Shown: one piece after another, positions 4,032 through 10,774 of the stretch | Layout of the letters: every line of letters starts with the position of its first letter | How positions within the stretch are numbered: the first letter of the stretch is position 1 | Virus record (IMG/VR): IMGVR_UViG_2531839477_000013 | DNA: 10,774 nt | Reading direction: 5' to 3' (one strand) | Origin: a virus | Taxonomy: Duplodnaviria; Heunggongvirae; Uroviricota; Caudoviricetes | The notes under the pieces: model-generated | The model's database searches: none | Told to the model about the DNA's origin: nothing | Seen by the model: only the letters and a program-made list of their open reading frames with translations | Position numbers and translations under genes: made by a program

Positions 4032-4474
4032 GTGCACCGGCAACCATTCTTGATATGTGCTGTGGCAGCCGCATGTTCTGGTTCGATAAGTCTGACAAAC
4101 GGGCGATATTCAGCGATATCAGAAAAGAAGGATACACATTACGCAATGGGAGACGCTTGATTATCAGCCCTGACATTATCGCAGATTTTCGTGCATTATC
4201 ATTTGCAGACGCATCTTTTTCGATGGTTGTATTAGACCCTCCGCATCTTGAGCGTGTTGGTGATAACGCCTGGATGGGAAAGAAATATGGACGGCTGAAT
4301 AAAGATGCCTGGCGTGATGATTTGCGACAGAGATTTAAAGAAGCTTTTCGGGTGTTGAGGTCGCACGGCGTTCTGATTTTTTAATGGAATGAAACGCAAA
4401 TACCGGTAAGCCAGATTCTGGCACTGACAGATAGAAAGCCTGTTATCTGTCAACGAACAGGGAAAAAACGATAA
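4028..4474 (+). pseudogene. SAM-dependent methyltransferase-like gene interrupted by an in-frame TAA at 4382-4384
   Basis: N-terminal motif-I-like ILDMCCGSRMF and motif-IV-like VLDPPH. After the TAA the same frame continues as WNETQIPVSQILALTDRKPVICQRTGKKR to a second TAA at 4472-4474. The track reports only 4028..4384. Confidence 0.55.
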
Positions 4475-4646
4475 AACCCACTGGATTATTTTTATGAAAG
4501 AGGCATCCAGTGAGTAGATTCGTAAGGTTACAGATACGTATATCTGAATAATTAAATTCAGTTCTGTAAATAAAACTTAATCCTTAACCGGATGGATTTC
4601 TGCACCCTCAGAACATCAGGAGGCCGCCCGAAAGGGCGGTAGTGAA

Positions 4647-4806: not shown

Positions 4807-4998
4807 ATGAGGAAGAACAAAGTGGCTGATTTTTGTTCAGCTAAATATAACATCAGTTTTGAAGAGCGGGATGAACTATTAATGGACTATGGTGAATTAC
4901 GCGGTGGAAGTGCTGTTGATGTCGAATCCTAGCGTGATGACTATGAAGCGGGAAAAACTCCGGTCGAAGCATATTGTGATGAGTGGGGCGATGAATGA
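4807..4998 (+). pseudogene. Candidate small acidic protein ORF with an in-frame TAG at 4930-4932: MRKNKVADFCSAKYNISFEERDELLMDYGELRGGSAVDVES(*)RDDYEAGKTPVEAYCDEWGDE
   Basis: Frame read by hand. The terminal TGA (4996-4998) overlaps the ATG of the next ORF (ATGA). Weak Shine-Dalgarno. Confidence 0.3.
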
Positions 4999-5249
4999 GC
5001 GAGATTAATTATCAGGAAGGGCATGAAACGGCGGGGCAAGCAAAACCAGTGGCATGGCGATATCGCTACGTGAAAAAAGCGTTACGGACTTTCAGGGGAA
5101 GTAGTGGTCTGGTGACTGGAAATATGTACCGAAAAAAGAGGATTGTAACGACAGGCCGAACTATCAAATTCAGGCCTTATTCACTGCCTCACCAGTCCCG
5201 GTTACATCAGAAGAACTGGTTAAAGCTGTGCACTTTTATGAACAACTAA
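4995..5249 (+). CDS. Hypothetical ORF (84 aa), possibly a frameshifted remnant
   Basis: Track ORF. An overlapping alternative frame (5054-5281) reads like protein (WSGDWKYVPKKEDCNDRPNYQIQALFTASPVPVTSEELVKAVHFYEQLKRENPPTSGN) but is itself broken by a TAG at 5102-5104. Confidence 0.3.
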   Translation: MSEINYQEGHETAGQAKPVAWRYRYVKKALRTFRGSSGLVTGNMYRKKRIVTTGRTIKFRPYSLPHQSRLHQKNWLKLCTFMNN

Positions 5250-5535
5250 AACGCGAAAATCCACCAACATCCGGCAACTAGATTAATGGATTAACTATGT
5301 CGGTTAAACGACCAGCCAACTGAAAAAGCGGAAACCTGATTACAGGTTGCCAGATAAGGCAATGAGCTACCTGGCGCGGAACGGACTGATAAGTATGGGG
5401 AATGTTTTACGATGAACCTTTAGACTAAAGAGTTTGTAACGCTATGTAAGTGATTTTTTCTGGTTTAGATATTTATATGTCCGGCCAAATTGAGGTGTGT
5501 TTAAATGTAATTGCACATTGATTGTAGGAGGAATA

Positions 5536-5715
5536 ATGAAAAACGCATTGCAGTTTTTGTTTGTTGCGTTCTGGTTGTTCGCATCATGTATGCCCATCAT
5601 CTTCACAGCAAGGTATATGGAAAAAGTTGATGTTTTGATATTAATATTTGGATATATAAATGCCCTTTTTTTAGGGGTGTTCATGGCGGTCATGTGCATT
5701 GAATACTGGCGGTAA
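5536..5715 (+). CDS. Small membrane protein, two predicted transmembrane helices (59 aa)
   Basis: ATG at 5536 preceded by GTAGGAGG (5524-5531). Product MKNALQFLFVAFWLFASCMPIIFTARYMEKVDVLILIFGYINALFLGVFMAVMCIEYWR. The track ORF 5497..5715 begins upstream. Sits in markedly AT-rich DNA. Confidence 0.5.
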   Translation: MKNALQFLFVAFWLFASCMPIIFTARYMEKVDVLILIFGYINALFLGVFMAVMCIEYWR

Positions 5716-6049
5716 ATACAGCGAACTCCATTGGTTTAGTTGGATATTTACTGTGCTGGACAAAAACGGTTTGCGGGGAAATCTTAGTTAAGTAGAATGA
5801 CTGCGGGTGCTTGAGGCTATCTGCCTCGGGCATGGACACCAACGGCAGATAGAGAAAAGCCCCAGTTAACATTACGCGTCCTGCAAGACGCTTAACATTA
5901 ATCTGAGGCCAATTTCATGCTAGACACATGTAGGTTAGCCTCTTACGTGCCGAAAGGCACGGAGAAGCAGGCTATTGTTAACACCAAGCTGTAATGTCCC
6001 CTTTGAACCATTCAAAAATGTCCCCAGACAATTCTCTGGGGGATTTTTC

Positions 6050-7390
6050 ATGATCAAAGAGACTGTTACGATGAGTCATAAGGAACTCCACCGACTTCAG
6101 ATTATTCAGGAGTCAATTAATCGACATATTACTCAGGAACAAGCTGCGGCACGCATTGGCATTTCTATTCGGCAGGTTAAACGTCTGGTGCAACGGTATA
6201 GAAATGAAGGGCCTTCTGGTCTGGTTTCCCACCGACGTGGAAAGCGTCCTAATAATTCCTTTTCTACTGAATTCAGAGCAACAGTAATTTCACTCCTCAA
6301 AGGCCGTTACGCTGATTTTGGACCTACGTTTGCGTGCGAAAAATTGCGCGAGATACACGGTTTATCTTTATCCGTTGAAACTCTCAGAAAGTGGATGATA
6401 GAAGAGGGGTTATGGCGTGAACGCCGTCGTAAAATTGCCCGTATATATCAACGCCGCATGCGACGACCATCTTATGGTGAACTGATCCAGATTGATGGCT
6501 CACCTCATGACTGGTTTGAAAATCGAGGCCCCAGATGTACACTGATCGTTTTCATTGATGATGCCACCAGTGCGTTGATGGCGTTGCGTTTTGTGCCTGC
6601 TGAAACAACCCGGGCTTACATGGAAACCCTCCGGGGTTACCTTAATGATCATGGCGTACCGCTCGCTCTCTACTCTGATAGACACAGTATATTCAGGGTA
6701 AATAACCCAGAGCGGGAAGGTGAGCTGACCCAGTTCACTCGTGCGATAAAGACACTGGGCATCGAGCCAATCCATGCCAACAGCCCGCAGGCAAAAGGGC
6801 GGGTAGAGCGCGCCAATCAGACACTACAGGACAGGCTGGTCAAAGAAATGCGGCTTCAGAATATCAGTGATATTGAAACAGCAAATGCATGGTTGCCGAC
6901 CTTTATTGAAGCCTATAACAACCGGTTCGCTACGTCGCCTCGTACTACTGATAATGCTCATCTTGATGTGCACCATTCTGAAGAGGAACTGGGTTATATC
7001 TTCAGCCTACAGGCGAAGCGCGTTCTGTCTAAAAATCTCACTTTCCAGTACAAAAGCAGTGCGTTTCAGGTACGCAGTGAGAGCCGGGGATATCGACTTA
7101 GGCATTCGGTTGTTACTGTATGCGAGAACTTTGACGGTGAAATTAACGTTCTGTATGACGGGAAAGCGCTGGGCTGGGAAAAGTATGTTGATGGCCCGGA
7201 GCCTATACCACTGGATGATGAAAAGAGTGTCCATGAACGAGTGGATAATGCCCGTATTGATTTACGCTCAAAATACTATGTTAAACCTAAAGCTGACCAT
7301 CCCTGGCTTACGCGCCGAACGCAAAGTCATCAGCAAGTTAAGCCCCCGAAGTTACCTAAAAAGAAGCCTGATCCCGATAAAAAAGATTGA
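6050..7390 (+). CDS. DDE transposase-like protein of the rve (integrase core) type, N-terminal HTH, 446 aa; IS481/ISNCY-like
   Basis: First in-frame ATG at 6050 after a GGGGGA Shine-Dalgarno (track ORF starts at TTG 5975). Catalytic-looking residues IQIDGS, LYSDRHS, GRVERANQTL. Probably the full-length counterpart of the intK fragment I recall in K-12 Qin. Element boundaries not identified. Confidence 0.82.
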   Translation: MIKETVTMSHKELHRLQIIQESINRHITQEQAAARIGISIRQVKRLVQRYRNEGPSGLVSHRRGKRPNNSFSTEFRATVISLLKGRYADFGPTFACEKLREIHGLSLSVETLRKWMIEEGLWRERRRKIARIYQRRMRRPSYGELIQIDGSPHDWFENRGPRCTLIVFIDDATSALMALRFVPAETTRAYMETLRGYLNDHGVPLALYSDRHSIFRVNNPEREGELTQFTRAIKTLGIEPIHANSPQAKGRVERANQTLQDRLVKEMRLQNISDIETANAWLPTFIEAYNNRFATSPRTTDNAHLDVHHSEEELGYIFSLQAKRVLSKNLTFQYKSSAFQVRSESRGYRLRHSVVTVCENFDGEINVLYDGKALGWEKYVDGPEPIPLDDEKSVHERVDNARIDLRSKYYVKPKADHPWLTRRTQSHQQVKPPKLPKKKPDPDKKD

Positions 7391-7786
7391 AACCAAGATC
7401 GATTCGGTTGAGTGCATATCCATTCATAGGGTAGATTCTTAAGTCGCGTTTCTGGTGTTCATTTTCGGGTGGTTTGTTACTTGTTTTACCGGGGATATGC
7501 CAGAAACGCGCTGAGTCAGTCTGGGCGGTGCGCGTAATGAGGCGTTATGGTAAATAGCCTATGCTAATGTCCGCTAAGAGCAAGAAGCGGAAGTTGGCAG
7601 TTTTGTGGACTGTCCCCACAAAAGTGACTACAGAAATAGTTGCAATTCATAATTGATCATGGGTTGTCAGTTAAACTCGTAGCGATTTAAATAGACTAAT
7701 TGGGAGTGCGTCCATTACTTATATCTTGTAATGTTAACTATCAGAAATGATACAAAGATAATATGTCTTTAAAGAAAAGGCTGATG

Positions 7787-7812
7787 GCGAAAAGTGGCCC
7801 GATGAGGGCCAC
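7787..7812 (-). terminator. Probable intrinsic terminator of flxA
   Basis: On the minus strand, stem GTGGCCC / GGGCCAC (plus 7794-7800 and 7806-7812) with a 5-nt loop, followed by CTTTTCG, 15 bp after the flxA stop. Confidence 0.55.
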
Positions 7813-7826
7813 AATACGGCTGTCAC

Positions 7827-8159
7827 TTAGACGTAAATATCAATGGTGCCAGCGGTATTTGTATCGTCTTTTTTCTCTTCTTTTTTATCAGGCTGAACTG
7901 TCGCGTCTTCATTCTTTTTCTCTGCCTGCTGCCTTAACAACTGCTCCAGTTGAGCCCAGAGGCTTTCAATTTGCTTCTGTACCAATGCAGCCATTTCTTT
8001 TTTCTGCTGTGTCGTCATCCCCTCTTCCGATGAGATTTTCCCAAGCTTTTCAGTCAGCACCTGAATTTGTCTTGTGATTTTGGCTATTTCTGATGTTCCT
8101 TCCGGGGCGGAGTTGTTTGAAATAACGGTTGAGGTATTTCCCTGAATTGTGACAGACAT
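7827..8159 (-). CDS. flxA: FlxA (sigma-28 dependent prophage protein), 110 aa
   Basis: 110-aa ORF MSVTIQGNTSTVISNNSAPEGTSEIAKITRQIQ..., matching FlxA as I recall it. AAGGAG Shine-Dalgarno 7 nt upstream of the ATG. Confidence 0.9.
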   Translation of the reverse strand: MSVTIQGNTSTVISNNSAPEGTSEIAKITRQIQVLTEKLGKISSEEGMTTQQKKEMAALVQKQIESLWAQLEQLLRQQAEKKNEDATVQPDKKEEKKDDTNTAGTIDIYV

Positions 8160-8182
8160 AGATTTCTCCTTTTAAAAAAGCA

Positions 8183-8209
8183 CTATCGGCATGAACAAAA
8201 AAATCTTTA
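8183..8209 (-). promoter_or_regulatory. FliA (sigma-28) promoter of flxA
   Basis: Minus strand reads TAAAGATT-N11-GCCGATAG, a close match to the sigma-28 consensus TAAAGTTT-N11-GCCGATAA, placed about 25 nt upstream of the flxA ATG. Confidence 0.8.
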
Positions 8210-8361
8210 ATCGTATTTCTTGTGTCATTAATTGTTTGATGTTCAGATTGTTTTCCTCGCGGGCTGGCGCGCCTCAGAAAGTAAAGCTTGTTGACAGGGG
8301 TAAACGTTCGGCAATAATTTTCTGCCGCATGCGGGTGTTGCATAAAACGTGTTACGTTCCT

Positions 8362-8667
8362 TTATCGACAGGTCAGGTCACCGCTCACCCGCCGACGAGA
8401 AAGCAACACTGACATGCTAAAGCAAAAAATAGATGAATAAGTTGAGTTGTGCATATGTAGCCTGACCGTCACAAAGTATATGGTGTCTGTACCAGTAAGA
8501 TGATGGCCGGACTCTTTAAAAACGAGCTGACCTGCACAATACAGGATGGACTTAGCAATGGCTGCTCCTGGCAGAAAGCGGACAGTGATCACCGTTCTTA
8601 CGACTACTTTCTGACTTCCTTCGTGACTTGCCCTAAGCATGTTGTAGTGCGATACTTGTAATGACAT
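8362..8667 (-). CDS. YdfV-like hypothetical ORF (101 aa), doubtful
   Basis: ORF length matches the 101-aa ydfV I recall between flxA and relB in K-12. The sequence has no recognisable features and its 5' end overlaps the relBE promoter-operator. Confidence 0.3.
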   Translation of the reverse strand: MSLQVSHYNMLRASHEGSQKVVVRTVITVRFLPGAAIAKSILYCAGQLVFKESGHHLTGTDTIYFVTVRLHMHNSTYSSIFCFSMSVLLSRRRVSGDLTCR

Positions 8668-8680
8668 TTGTAATTACAAG
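8628..8680 (+). promoter_or_regulatory. relBE promoter and operator: TTGCCC (8628-8633), 17-bp spacer, GATACT (8651-8656), operator repeats CTTGTAATGACATTTGTAATTACAAG (8655-8680)
   Basis: Hexamers and the TTGTAAT/ATTACAA palindrome read directly. Position immediately upstream of relB fits the autoregulated relBE operator. Confidence 0.65.
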
Positions 8681-8691
8681 AGGTGTAAGAC

Positions 8692-8931
8692 ATGGGTAGC
8701 ATTAACCTGCGTATTGACGATGAACTTAAAGCGCGTTCTTACGCCGCGCTTGAAAAAATGGGTGTAACTCCTTCTGAAGCGCTTCGTCTCATGCTCGAGT
8801 ATATCGCTGACAATGAACGCTTGCCGTTCAAACAGACACTCCTGAGTGATGAAGATGCTGAACTTGTGGAGATAGTGAAAGAACGGCTTCGTAATCCTAA
8901 GCCAGTACGTGTGACGCTGGATGAACTCTGA
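8692..8931 (+). CDS. relB: RelB antitoxin (79 aa)
   Basis: Product MGSINLRIDDELKARSYAALEKMGVTPSEALRLMLEYIADNERLPFKQTLLSDEDAELVEIVKERLRNPKPVRVTLDEL is near-identical to K-12 RelB as I recall it. Its stop overlaps the relE start by 1 nt. Confidence 0.95.
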   Translation: MGSINLRIDDELKARSYAALEKMGVTPSEALRLMLEYIADNERLPFKQTLLSDEDAELVEIVKERLRNPKPVRVTLDEL

Positions 8932-9218
8932 TGGCGTATTTTCTGGATTTTGACGAGCGGGCACTAAAGGAATGGCGAAAGCTGGGCTCGACGGTACGTG
9001 AACAGTTGAAAAAGAAGCTGGTTGAAGTACTTGAGTCACCCCGGATTGAAGCAAACAAGCTCCGTGGTATGCCTGATTGTTACAAGATTAAGCTCCGGTC
9101 TTCAGGCTATCGCCTTGTATACCAGGTTATAGACGAGAAAGTTGTCGTTTTCGTGATTTCTGTTGGGAAAAGAGAACGCTCGGAAGTATATAGCGAGGCG
9201 GTCAAACGCATTCTCTGA
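8931..9218 (+). CDS. relE: RelE toxin (mRNA interferase), 95 aa
   Basis: Product MAYFLDFDERALKEWRKLGSTVREQLKKKLVEVLESPRIEANKLRGMPDCYKIKLRSSGYRLVYQVIDEKVVVFVISVGKRERSEVYSEAVKRIL matches RelE as I recall it. Confidence 0.95.
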   Translation: MAYFLDFDERALKEWRKLGSTVREQLKKKLVEVLESPRIEANKLRGMPDCYKIKLRSSGYRLVYQVIDEKVVVFVISVGKRERSEVYSEAVKRIL

Positions 9219-9289
9219 ACCAAAGCATGACATCTCTGTTTCGCACCGAAGGTGACACTTCTGCTTTGCGTTGACAGGAGAAGCAGGCT

Positions 9290-9445
9290 ATGAAGCAGCA
9301 AAAGGCGATGTTAATCGCCCTGATCGTCATCTGTTTAACCGTCATAGTGACGGCACTGGTAACGAGGAAAGACCTCTGCGAGGTACGAATCCGAACCGGC
9401 CAGACGGAGGTCGCTGTCTTCACAGCTTACGAACCTGAGGAGTAA
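9290..9445 (+). CDS. hokD: HokD (RelF) Hok-family membrane toxin, 51 aa, below the ORF-track cutoff
   Basis: Hand translation gives MKQQKAMLIALIVICLTVIVTALVTRKDLCEVRIRTGQTEVAVFTAYEPEE with TAA at 9443-9445. A typical Hok sequence, in the expected place after relE. Confidence 0.9.
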   Translation: MKQQKAMLIALIVICLTVIVTALVTRKDLCEVRIRTGQTEVAVFTAYEPEE

Positions 9446-9467: not shown

Positions 9468-10774
9468 CATAAGCGCTAACTTAAGGGTTGTGGTATTACG
9501 CCTGATATGATTTAACGTGCCGATGAATTACTCTCACGATAACTGGTCAGCAATTCTGGCCCATATTGGTAAGCCCGAAGAACTGGATACTTCGGCACGT
9601 AATGCCGGGGCTCTAACCCGCCGCCGCGAAATTCGTGATGCTGCAACTCTGCTACGTCTGGGGCTGGCTTACGGCCCCGGGGGGATGTCATTACGTGAAG
9701 TCACTGCATGGGCTCAGCTCCATGACGTTGCAACATTATCTGACGTGGCTCTCCTGAAGCGGCTGCGGAATGCCGCCGACTGGTTTGGCATACTTGCCGC
9801 ACAAACACTTGCTGTACGCGCCGCAGTTACGGGTTGTACAAGCGGAAAGAGATTGCGTCTTGTCGATGGAACAGCAATCAGTGCGCCCGGGGGCGGCAGC
9901 GCTGAATGGCGACTACATATGGGATATGATCCTCATACCTGTCAGTTCACTGATTTTGAGCTAACCGACAGCAGAGACGCTGAACGGCTGGACCGATTTG
10001 CGCAAACGGCAGACGAGATACGCATTGCTGACCGGGGATTCGGTTCGCGTCCCGAATGTATCCGCTCACTTGCTTTTGGAGAAGCTGATTATATCGTCCG
10101 GGTTCACTGGCGAGGATTGCGCTGGTTAACTGCAGAAGGAATGCGCTTTGACATGATGGGTTTTCTGCGCGGGCTGGATTGCGGTAAGAACGGTGAAACC
10201 ACTGTAATGATAGGCAATTCAGGTAATAAAAAAGCCGGAGCTCCCTTTCCGGCACGTCTCATTGCCGTATCACTTCCTCCCGAAAAAGCATTAATCAGTA
10301 AAACCCGACTGCTCAGCGAGAATCGTCGAAAAGGACGAGTAGTTCAGGCGGAAACGCTGGAAGCAGCGGGCCATGTGCTATTGCTAACATCATTACCGGA
10401 AGATGAATATTCAGCAGAGCAAGTGGCTGATTGTTACCGTCTGCGATGGCAAATTGAACTGGCTTTTAAGCGGCTCAAAAGTTTGCTGCACCTGGATGCT
10501 TTGCGTGCAAAGGAACCTGAACTCGCGAAAGCGTGGATATTTGCTAATCTACTCGCCGCATTTTTAATTGACGACATAATCCAGCCATCGCTGGATTTCC
10601 CCCCCAGAAGTGCCGGATCCGAAAAGAAGAACTAACTCGTTGTGGAGAATAACAAAAATGGTCATCTGGAGCTTACAGGTGGCCATTCGTGGGACAGTAT
10701 CCCTGACAGCCTACAAAACGCAATTGAAGAACGCGAGGCATCGTCTTAACGAGGCACCGAGGCGTCGCATTCTT
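9468..10774 (+). mobile_element. IS186 (IS4 family), left end at 9468; right end lies about 30 bp beyond the window
   Basis: The sequence from CATAAGCGCTAACTTAAGGGTTG (9468-) matches the IS186 left terminus as I recall it. The window ends inside the element just before the expected right inverted repeat. Inserted 22 bp after the hokD stop in a GC-rich site (GGCGGGGGAGAATCC). Confidence 0.88.
9523..10635 (+). CDS. insL: IS186 transposase (IS4 family, DDE), 370 aa
   Basis: ATG at 9523 (track ORF starts at GTG 9517). Product MNYSHDNWSAILAHIGKPEELD... with the IS4-family Y-x2-R-x3-E-x6-K motif (YRLRWQIELAFKRLK). Confidence 0.9.
   Translation: MNYSHDNWSAILAHIGKPEELDTSARNAGALTRRREIRDAATLLRLGLAYGPGGMSLREVTAWAQLHDVATLSDVALLKRLRNAADWFGILAAQTLAVRAAVTGCTSGKRLRLVDGTAISAPGGGSAEWRLHMGYDPHTCQFTDFELTDSRDAERLDRFAQTADEIRIADRGFGSRPECIRSLAFGEADYIVRVHWRGLRWLTAEGMRFDMMGFLRGLDCGKNGETTVMIGNSGNKKAGAPFPARLIAVSLPPEKALISKTRLLSENRRKGRVVQAETLEAAGHVLLLTSLPEDEYSAEQVADCYRLRWQIELAFKRLKSLLHLDALRAKEPELAKAWIFANLLAAFLIDDIIQPSLDFPPRSAGSEKKN

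Follow-up and report, generated by a model that had tools for sequence, protein, structure and literature searches.

Morons, known from comparisons of the lambdoid phages HK97 and HK022, are extra genes of deviant base composition, each provided with a promoter and a terminator of its own. Small phage proteins with two transmembrane segments include the class II holins and pinholins and the exclusion proteins of the T4 Imm type, all comparable in size and hairpin architecture to the product of the gene described here. By its position, the gene can also be compared with the Hok/Gef proteins of type I toxin systems. It lies in a stretch of 10,774 nucleotides (nt) of viral DNA (Caudoviricetes; IMG/VR record IMGVR_UViG_2531839477_000013), which was analysed at its full length and is hereafter called the window; the window corresponds to the early region of an Escherichia coli prophage, lambdoid and Qin-like. 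The open reading frame (ORF) at positions 5536-5715 on the plus strand is best interpreted as a real gene for a 59-residue helical hairpin of the inner membrane, which would belong to an undescribed family of E. coli and Shigella and serve as a dispensable accessory factor; the probability of this interpretation as a whole is set at roughly 0.6.

The ORF starts with ATG at 5536, ends with TAA at 5713-5715 and encodes a protein of 59 amino acid residues (aa), MKNALQFLFVAFWLFASCMPIIFTARYMEKVDVLILIFGYINALFLGVFMAVMCIEYWR. The start codon is preceded, at a distance of 4 nt, by a Shine-Dalgarno sequence, AGGAGG (5526-5531, plus strand); this hexamer is found three times on the plus strand of the window and not at all on the minus strand. 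Among 127 related loci, the Shine-Dalgarno sequence was AGGAGG in 60 and AGGGGG in 64, and a second, diverged branch of the family (described below) carries AGGGA; the start at ATG 5536 is backed by a Shine-Dalgarno sequence in both branches. A 72-aa version from GTG 5497, given in some GenBank records, was rejected, since the extension contains in-frame stop codons in the second branch and the Shine-Dalgarno sequence precedes the ATG. Hydrophobic residues form two stretches, residues about 4-24 and about 33-55, separated by a charged turn (ARYMEKVD). The model predicted by AlphaFold2 from an alignment of 10 sequences is a hairpin of two helices (residues 2-26 and 31-58), with a mean pLDDT (predicted local distance difference test) of 73.6. 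The charges, as read from the sequences, agree with the positive-inside rule, the N-terminus beginning with MK or MRK and the loop being acidic in the second branch. By this rule, both termini would be located in the cytoplasm and the short acidic or neutral turn in the periplasm. The initial annotation of this DNA, made from the letters alone, had recognised a small two-helix membrane protein of 59 aa with a strong ribosome-binding site, and this is borne out by the ORF, the AGGAGG sequence, the predicted hairpin and the coding tests given below.

The second branch was first met as protein P0037 (with variants P0040 and P0041) when 1.84 billion cluster representatives were searched exhaustively with HMMER. 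Its common form (P0042) was found by profile search on more than 1000 contigs, and its database entries include A0A2S5RMW9_ECOLX in UniRef and an 'uncharacterized membrane protein' in JGI. The second-branch protein is exactly 59 aa long, aligns with the window protein without gaps at 41% identity and shows the same two-helix layout. Of 5426 complete E. coli genomes, 1045 carry its gene, in the interval from ttcA to uspF; PGAP (Prokaryotic Genome Annotation Pipeline) or RefSeq annotation of it is absent in the listed records. The ttcA-uspF interval of B2-type E. coli (L132, 4100-5600, and L146-L150) is a heavily deleted remnant of a lambdoid prophage, in which all neighbours of the ORF are pseudogenes, including an integrase fragment, a DUF1627 fragment, a 3' remnant of hok and frameshifted metal ABC permease genes. 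The ORF itself was intact in 14 of 14 loci and is the only intact reading frame of the remnant. The two branches are thus alike in length, gap-free alignment, shared motifs and the presence of hok-derived sequence on the 3' side, and they differ in that the second branch resides in a fixed chromosomal remnant with pseudogene neighbours and a dead hok, whereas the window type resides in a complete prophage.

Evidence for the ORF as a coding gene comes from the comparison between the branches, for which the window ORF was tested against that of L132. The two ORFs are 59% identical in nucleotide sequence without insertions or deletions (indels), and the differences are distributed as 25/17/31 over codon positions 1/2/3; the non-coding sequence upstream of the ORF aligns between the branches only with several indels. 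The proportions of nonsynonymous and synonymous differences (pN and pS) were 0.34 and 0.72, the latter being saturated, with a ratio of 0.47; after Jukes-Cantor correction, the ratio of nonsynonymous to synonymous rates (dN/dS) was about 0.19, below the value of any other frame of the six. Of these six, the ORF frame alone is open in both branches. In a neutral simulation, in which 73 random substitutions were drawn from the observed replacement bases, the frame stayed open in 2.6% of the trials (P = 0.026). Among the open simulants, at least 24 identical residues were retained with P = 0.008, and the observed hydropathy correlation of 0.80 was reached by none of about 500. Polymorphism within the branches was also lower in the ORF than in its surroundings, with 7 polymorphic sites of 180 against 21 of 209 in flanking non-coding sequence for the first branch (P = 0.014) and 2 of 180 against 40 of 1246 in the flanks for the second (P = 0.083), giving P = 0.009 for both branches combined. 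The initial annotation had made its proposal depend on conservation of the ORF in related islets; the ORF is full-length in 124 of 126 related loci and has its counterpart in the 41%-identical second branch.

Similarity searches connected the protein to nothing outside these two branches. Pfam, PHROG and NCBIfam gave no family for the 59-aa protein at E values up to 1, the PADLOC defence models gave none for either branch at E values up to 1, and a profile search of the PDB gave nothing at E values up to 10. Foldseek comparison of the AlphaFold2 model with BFVD returned generic helical hairpins only, the best at E = 0.69. All of this agrees with the earlier statement that no known family could be assigned from the sequence. 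In the first protein search, the sequences retrieved were from E. coli and Shigella only, at 74% identity or more, with frameshifted (at a run of T residues) and insertion sequence (IS)-truncated forms among them, and profile searches of 5.8 billion proteins (word-indexed) and of 1.84 billion proteins (full HMMER) recovered only the two branches. Some GenBank records label the ORF 'hypothetical protein' or 'membrane protein'. As judged from these searches, the 59-aa hairpin is the founder of an undescribed and unnamed family limited to E. coli and Shigella. The run of T residues is seven nt long and lies inside the ORF at 5670-5676. The databases hold several frameshifted 55-aa variants consistent with a run of eight, mostly from automated read assemblies, and a run of six was found in one of 126 IMG/VR loci; such length variants could be either slippage mutations or homopolymer sequencing errors.

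The 10-sequence alignment of both branches gives an indication of what has been kept. The invariant columns include W13, S17, C18, P20, I21, I22, T24, L36, F38, G39, N42, A43, L44, G47, E56, W58 and R59, which form the family motifs W13, S-C-x-P-I-I-x-T (17-24), F-G-x-x-N-A-L-x-x-G (38-47) and the C-terminal E-x-W-R (56-59). The conserved residues are polar or small. They are concentrated in the half of each helix nearer to the periplasm and in the I-E-x-W-R sequence at the C-terminus. This patch may represent a specific surface for helix packing or for binding of a partner, instead of the features of a generic hydrophobic peptide. The hairpin is proposed to work at the inner membrane, either as an oligomer or through contact with a different membrane component, and could serve the phage or the lysogen as a dispensable accessory factor.

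The ORF is carried on an AT-rich cassette of 342 base pairs (bp) at 5416-5757. The borders were set by comparison with E. coli ABU 83972 (L143), because this hokD locus without the ORF matches the window at 5311-5415 and again at 5758-5975, with 74 unrelated nt in between instead of 342. In strain TW14425 (H100/L142), the homology starts only at 5419, with an IS1 transposase gene just upstream, and this breakpoint may be an IS insertion instead of independent support for the border. A 551-nt query (5250-5800) was matched at 1658 places in 1585 of the 5426 complete E. coli genomes; this set and the 1045 genomes of the second branch are counted separately, their overlap not having been computed. 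The left ends of the matches vary (query positions 5, 41, 80 and 170), indicating mosaicism upstream of the cassette; from about 5419 up to the hok leader, the sequence was always kept as one unit. The hokD-type loci numbered 10829 places in 4722 genomes, and the cassette was present at 1658 places, or about 15%. It was also found in the inducible or isolated phages PhiR42_1, vB_EcoS-640R1 and 813R8. Taken together, the cassette is an optional element of the nin region, found in lambdoid (Qin-like) prophages and in inducible phages, and it immediately precedes the putative promoter of a hokD-type hok/sok locus.

The GC content of the cassette is 35.7%, against 46.7% for the whole window and 45-47% for the flanks, and ranges from 0.345 to 0.37 in 200-nt segments across 5401-5800. 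Segments equally rich in AT (0.35-0.365) are found at 1301-1500, 4401-4600 and 7601-7800, indicating that the dip is not unique in the window. Upstream of the cassette, a nin-region pseudogene with a frameshift and an internal stop occupies 4995-5416 on the plus strand, as annotated by PGAP on the identical stretch of E. coli ATCC 8739; it is homologous to intact coding sequences in L004 and in ABU 83972, and its 3' remainder, 5250-5415, lies outside the cassette. The initial annotation had drawn the islet from 5250 to 5720 and described it as moron-like. The drop in GC is real, and the borders had to be moved to 5416-5757, since 165 nt of the unrelated pseudogene had been included. The check that it had proposed, presence or absence of the islet among related prophages, gave the 342 bp against 74 nt in ABU 83972 and the 1658 places against 10829 described above. 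Of the moron label, the variable presence and the deviant GC content hold, and the promoter and terminator of its own do not, neither having been found.

The context that had been missed in that annotation is the hok leader next to the cassette. The stretch 5805-5975 on the plus strand is the sense-strand 5' leader of a hokD-type mRNA. It was detected by cmscan as a match to RF01794 ('sok') of Rfam at 5805-5976, with a score of 104.1 bits (gathering score, 59; E = 2.5e-23). In the uninterrupted loci L003, L004, L005, L006 and L007, the same stretch continues straight into the start codon of hokD on the same strand, indicating that it is the sense leader, with the Sok antisense RNA encoded within. 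A putative hok promoter, TTGCGG-16-TAGAAT, was located by relaxed hexamer scan at 5771-5798 on the plus strand, ending 6 nt before 5805. The stop of the 59-aa ORF is 90 nt before the hok leader in the first branch, in the same orientation. In the second branch, about 55 nt separate the ORF from a 66-nt remnant of hok, which matches the 3' half of the hokD coding region at 79% identity and contains an in-frame stop; both leader and N-terminal half have been deleted there. Since both of the diverged branches adjoin hok sequence, the linkage is old. It is not obligatory, as the ORF of the second branch is intact where hok is dead, and hokD is intact in locus L010 where the ORF is dead.

Small hydrophobic ORFs were also observed upstream of hokD at loci lacking the cassette. 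In ABU 83972 (L143 2372-2455), a 27-aa single-helix hydrophobic peptide, MTWPEALTTVGIAMAVALVVYSICRWG, overlaps the stop of the preceding gene, and on the plasmid pYLPI7b (L145 2239-2484) a protein of 81 aa has two hydrophobic stretches. Homology of the latter to the 59-aa protein was considered and rejected on sequence comparison. The occurrence of such unrelated ORFs at the same spot may be a coincidence or a pattern.

One possibility raised by the linkage is a functional partnership between the hairpin protein and Hok, in which the former would be a modulator at the membrane level, an immunity factor or a co-toxin and the cassette would form one module with hok/sok. The immediate upstream, co-oriented position in both deeply diverged branches is in agreement with this proposal, as are the lack of a terminator between the ORF and the hok promoter and the unrelated 27-aa and 81-aa ORFs that precede other hokD-type loci. 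A partner of Hok, however, would hardly be expected at only about 15% of the hokD-type places, nor would each gene persist where the other is dead, and simple co-inheritance within the nin region could produce the same linkage. On balance, the partnership is regarded as unlikely. Its strongest form, in which hairpin and Hok are an ancient two-gene membrane module and the 59-aa protein tunes, gates or neutralises Hok or kills jointly with it, is a speculative proposal of low probability. If true, it would explain both the adjacency of the two 41%-identical lineages to hok and the small hydrophobic ORFs before other hokD loci, and a system regarded as controlled by RNA alone would gain a component at the protein level.

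The preferred interpretation, an accessory membrane protein of the prophage, leaves room for a role in the lysogen. The ORF is co-oriented with the early-right operon, which extends from dicC to the Q antiterminator, and is located upstream of ydfU, rusA and Q. No terminator was found on the plus strand between 5716 and 5804. Most likely, phage transcription begun further upstream would read through into the ORF, and translation would be initiated at its strong ribosome-binding site. An alternative proposal, already raised in the initial annotation beside a toxin, is that the protein protects the lysogen, as a membrane protein for superinfection exclusion or abortive infection. A small two-helix inner-membrane protein, variably present at an accessory position of a prophage, would fit such a function, and its survival in a remnant where all neighbours have decayed fits a benefit to the host. 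On the other hand, neither a PADLOC model nor a PHROG family matches the protein, and no promoter of its own was found for expression in a repressed lysogen. Protection of the lysogen is thus also rated as improbable.

Several observations weigh against a functional gene of any kind. PGAP places no feature over the ORF in any of the records checked (5 loci in detail and 40 listed records, 5420-5800). The published literature, searched by peptide strings and database accessions, does not mention the 59-aa protein, and the passages searched in a recent preprint surveying Hok do not mention an ORF upstream of hok. A consensus scan detected no sigma-70-like promoter of at least 9/12 within 4900-6200, and the best score in a relaxed scan of 5300-5560 was 7.5, although such consensus scans are crude and weak promoters are possible. 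Within the first branch, 10 of 10 variable sites were non-synonymous and none was synonymous, a pattern of relaxed selection, with P about 0.1 under neutrality and with most changes conservative; from 10 variable sites, none of them synonymous, dN/dS within the branch is not estimable. The divergent copy in L010 carries three separate 1-nt deletions in the ORF beside an intact hokD, indicating that the gene is dispensable, and both frameshifted alleles at the T run and IS1-interrupted copies occur. Finally, there are two tight branches only, and the statistics of covariation and selection amount essentially to one deep comparison.

Several of these observations would be explained if the ORF were a chance or decaying frame in a T-rich, AT-rich spacer upstream of hok, giving no functional protein today. 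T-rich DNA easily encodes hydrophobic residues, and the missing PGAP annotation, the exclusively non-synonymous changes within the first branch, the broken copy in L010 and the frameshift variants would follow. Two phage depositors, moreover, annotated the opposite strand (L002 6193-6444 and L003 5114-5365), as 'hornerin' once and otherwise as hypothetical. The opposite-strand ORF of 85 aa (5442-5699, minus strand) was rejected as a gene because it contains several stops in the second branch and its dN/dS is about 0.8. The 'hornerin' or opposite-strand annotation is probably spurious, as this frame is not kept between the branches. Against a chance frame, the retention of frame, length, 24 identical residues and hydropathy profile across the branches would be very unlikely under neutrality, and polymorphism is below that of the flanks in both branches. 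The probability of a chance or decaying frame is therefore taken to be small. We read the ORF as a real gene under moderate constraint, dispensable and sometimes lost, as expected of an accessory gene in decaying prophages.

An independent type I-like membrane toxin, controlled by an antisense or divergent small RNA of its own, is suggested by the small size, the hydrophobicity, the strong ribosome-binding site and the neighbouring bona fide type I system, but is very improbable, since the cassette (5416-5757) contains no Rfam match, no antisense promoter above 7.5 and no minus-strand terminator, the protein has two helices in 59 aa where most type I toxins have one, and it does not match Hok/Gef of Pfam. 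The minus strand has a single terminator-like site, at 5348-5333, which falls in a poorly conserved stretch beyond the cassette. As no promoter, terminator or antisense partner of its own was detected in these scans, the gene is taken to be neither a classical moron nor a classical type I toxin.

The surroundings of the cassette were assigned by PGAP annotation on the identical stretch of ATCC 8739 together with the ORF list. The left part of the window contains, in order, dicF, dicA, dicC, a YdaT-family gene, a replication-O-like gene, a DUF977 gene and a methyltransferase gene, followed in the middle by decayed nin-region genes, the AT-rich islet and the hok mRNA leader, and in the right part by an ISNCY/IS1202-type transposase gene, flxA, ydfV, relB, relE, hokD and the left end of IS186. 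The Rfam search of the window placed dicF at 305-356 on the minus strand, and a sub-threshold match to STnc100 was observed just downstream of it, at 153-293 on the minus strand (38.6 bits; gathering score, 47; E = 1.3e-5). A search of the window for tRNA genes found none.

The hok locus of the window is interrupted. Its leader breaks off within the hokD start codon, at 5975, and the remainder of the locus follows from 9276/9277. The intervening segment, 5976-9276 on the plus strand, is a 3.3-kb transposon of the IS1202 family that carries flxA, ydfV, relB and relE and is inserted at the hokD start codon, as indicated by its ends, repeats and empty sites. The ends are TGT...ACA, with imperfect terminal inverted repeats (21/28), and the element is flanked by a 15-bp direct repeat, GGAGAAGCAGGCTAT, at 5961-5975 and 9277-9291. 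The hallmarks of the IS1202 family are TGT/ACA ends, imperfect repeats of 24-28 bp and, in one subgroup, duplications of 16-17 bp (PMC10132070). The transposase is called 'IS1202-like element ISEsa1 family' by PGAP in a single record and ISNCY in further records. Of 5426 genomes, 760 have the full transposon unit at this site; unoccupied sites are common. The hokD coding region is located at 9290-9445 on the plus strand, according to the ORF listing, the alignment to intact loci and the annotation of the matching stretch. The orphaned leader thus lies 3.3 kb upstream of the coding region that it formerly served; in K-12, the leader has been lost by the ydfX-ydfW deletion. From its sequence organisation, the classical relBE-hokD ('relBEF') arrangement looks like the product of an IS1202-family transposon with cargo genes, by which a hok/sok locus was decapitated. 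A copy of IS186 is present at 9469-10774, with the left end CATAAGCGCTAACTTAAGGGTTG, in a G-rich/C-rich site, GGGGGAGAATCCC, 23 nt past the hokD stop. Its insertion point corresponds to the would-be 3' part of the hok mRNA, and no IS is found there in ATCC 8739 and other loci.

In K-12 MG1655, everything between ydfX and ydfW is gone, the islet included, and the 59-aa gene has remained unstudied because of this deletion. Small membrane proteins are systematically missed by annotation, and the 59-aa ORF is a case of this kind, being unannotated by PGAP wherever checked. The signs of constraint and the survival in a decayed remnant make it a cheap and well-defined candidate for functional work on small proteins, while its fixed position upstream of hok provides a concrete testable hypothesis. 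The analysis of the surroundings also clarifies the structure of the classical relBE-hokD locus.

The nearest systems can now be compared with this locus. The proteins of the Hok/Gef family (PF01848), including HokD, are likewise small hydrophobic proteins of the inner membrane, encoded in the same prophage region, in the same orientation and physically adjacent. They differ from the 59-aa protein, which has no PF01848 match and two predicted helices, whereas Hok has one N-terminal helix followed by a periplasmic tail containing Cys; the 59-aa gene, furthermore, is without a mok-like overlapping frame, a structured leader with tac/ucb elements or an antisense RNA. Morons are like the 59-aa gene in being variably present at the same position with a GC content below that of the neighbours. 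Unlike them, the 59-aa gene has no recognisable promoter or intrinsic terminator and appears to be embedded in the early-right transcription unit. The holins and pinholins and the T4 Imm-type proteins share with the 59-aa protein neither sequence nor a significant fold match. Its identification as a holin or pinholin was rejected on the lack of a PHROG or Pfam hit and on the location of the gene in the nin region upstream of Q, outside the lysis cassette. The 59-aa protein is classed among the small prophage-borne membrane proteins, and its sole relative is the uncharacterised protein of the second branch, retained between ttcA and uspF.

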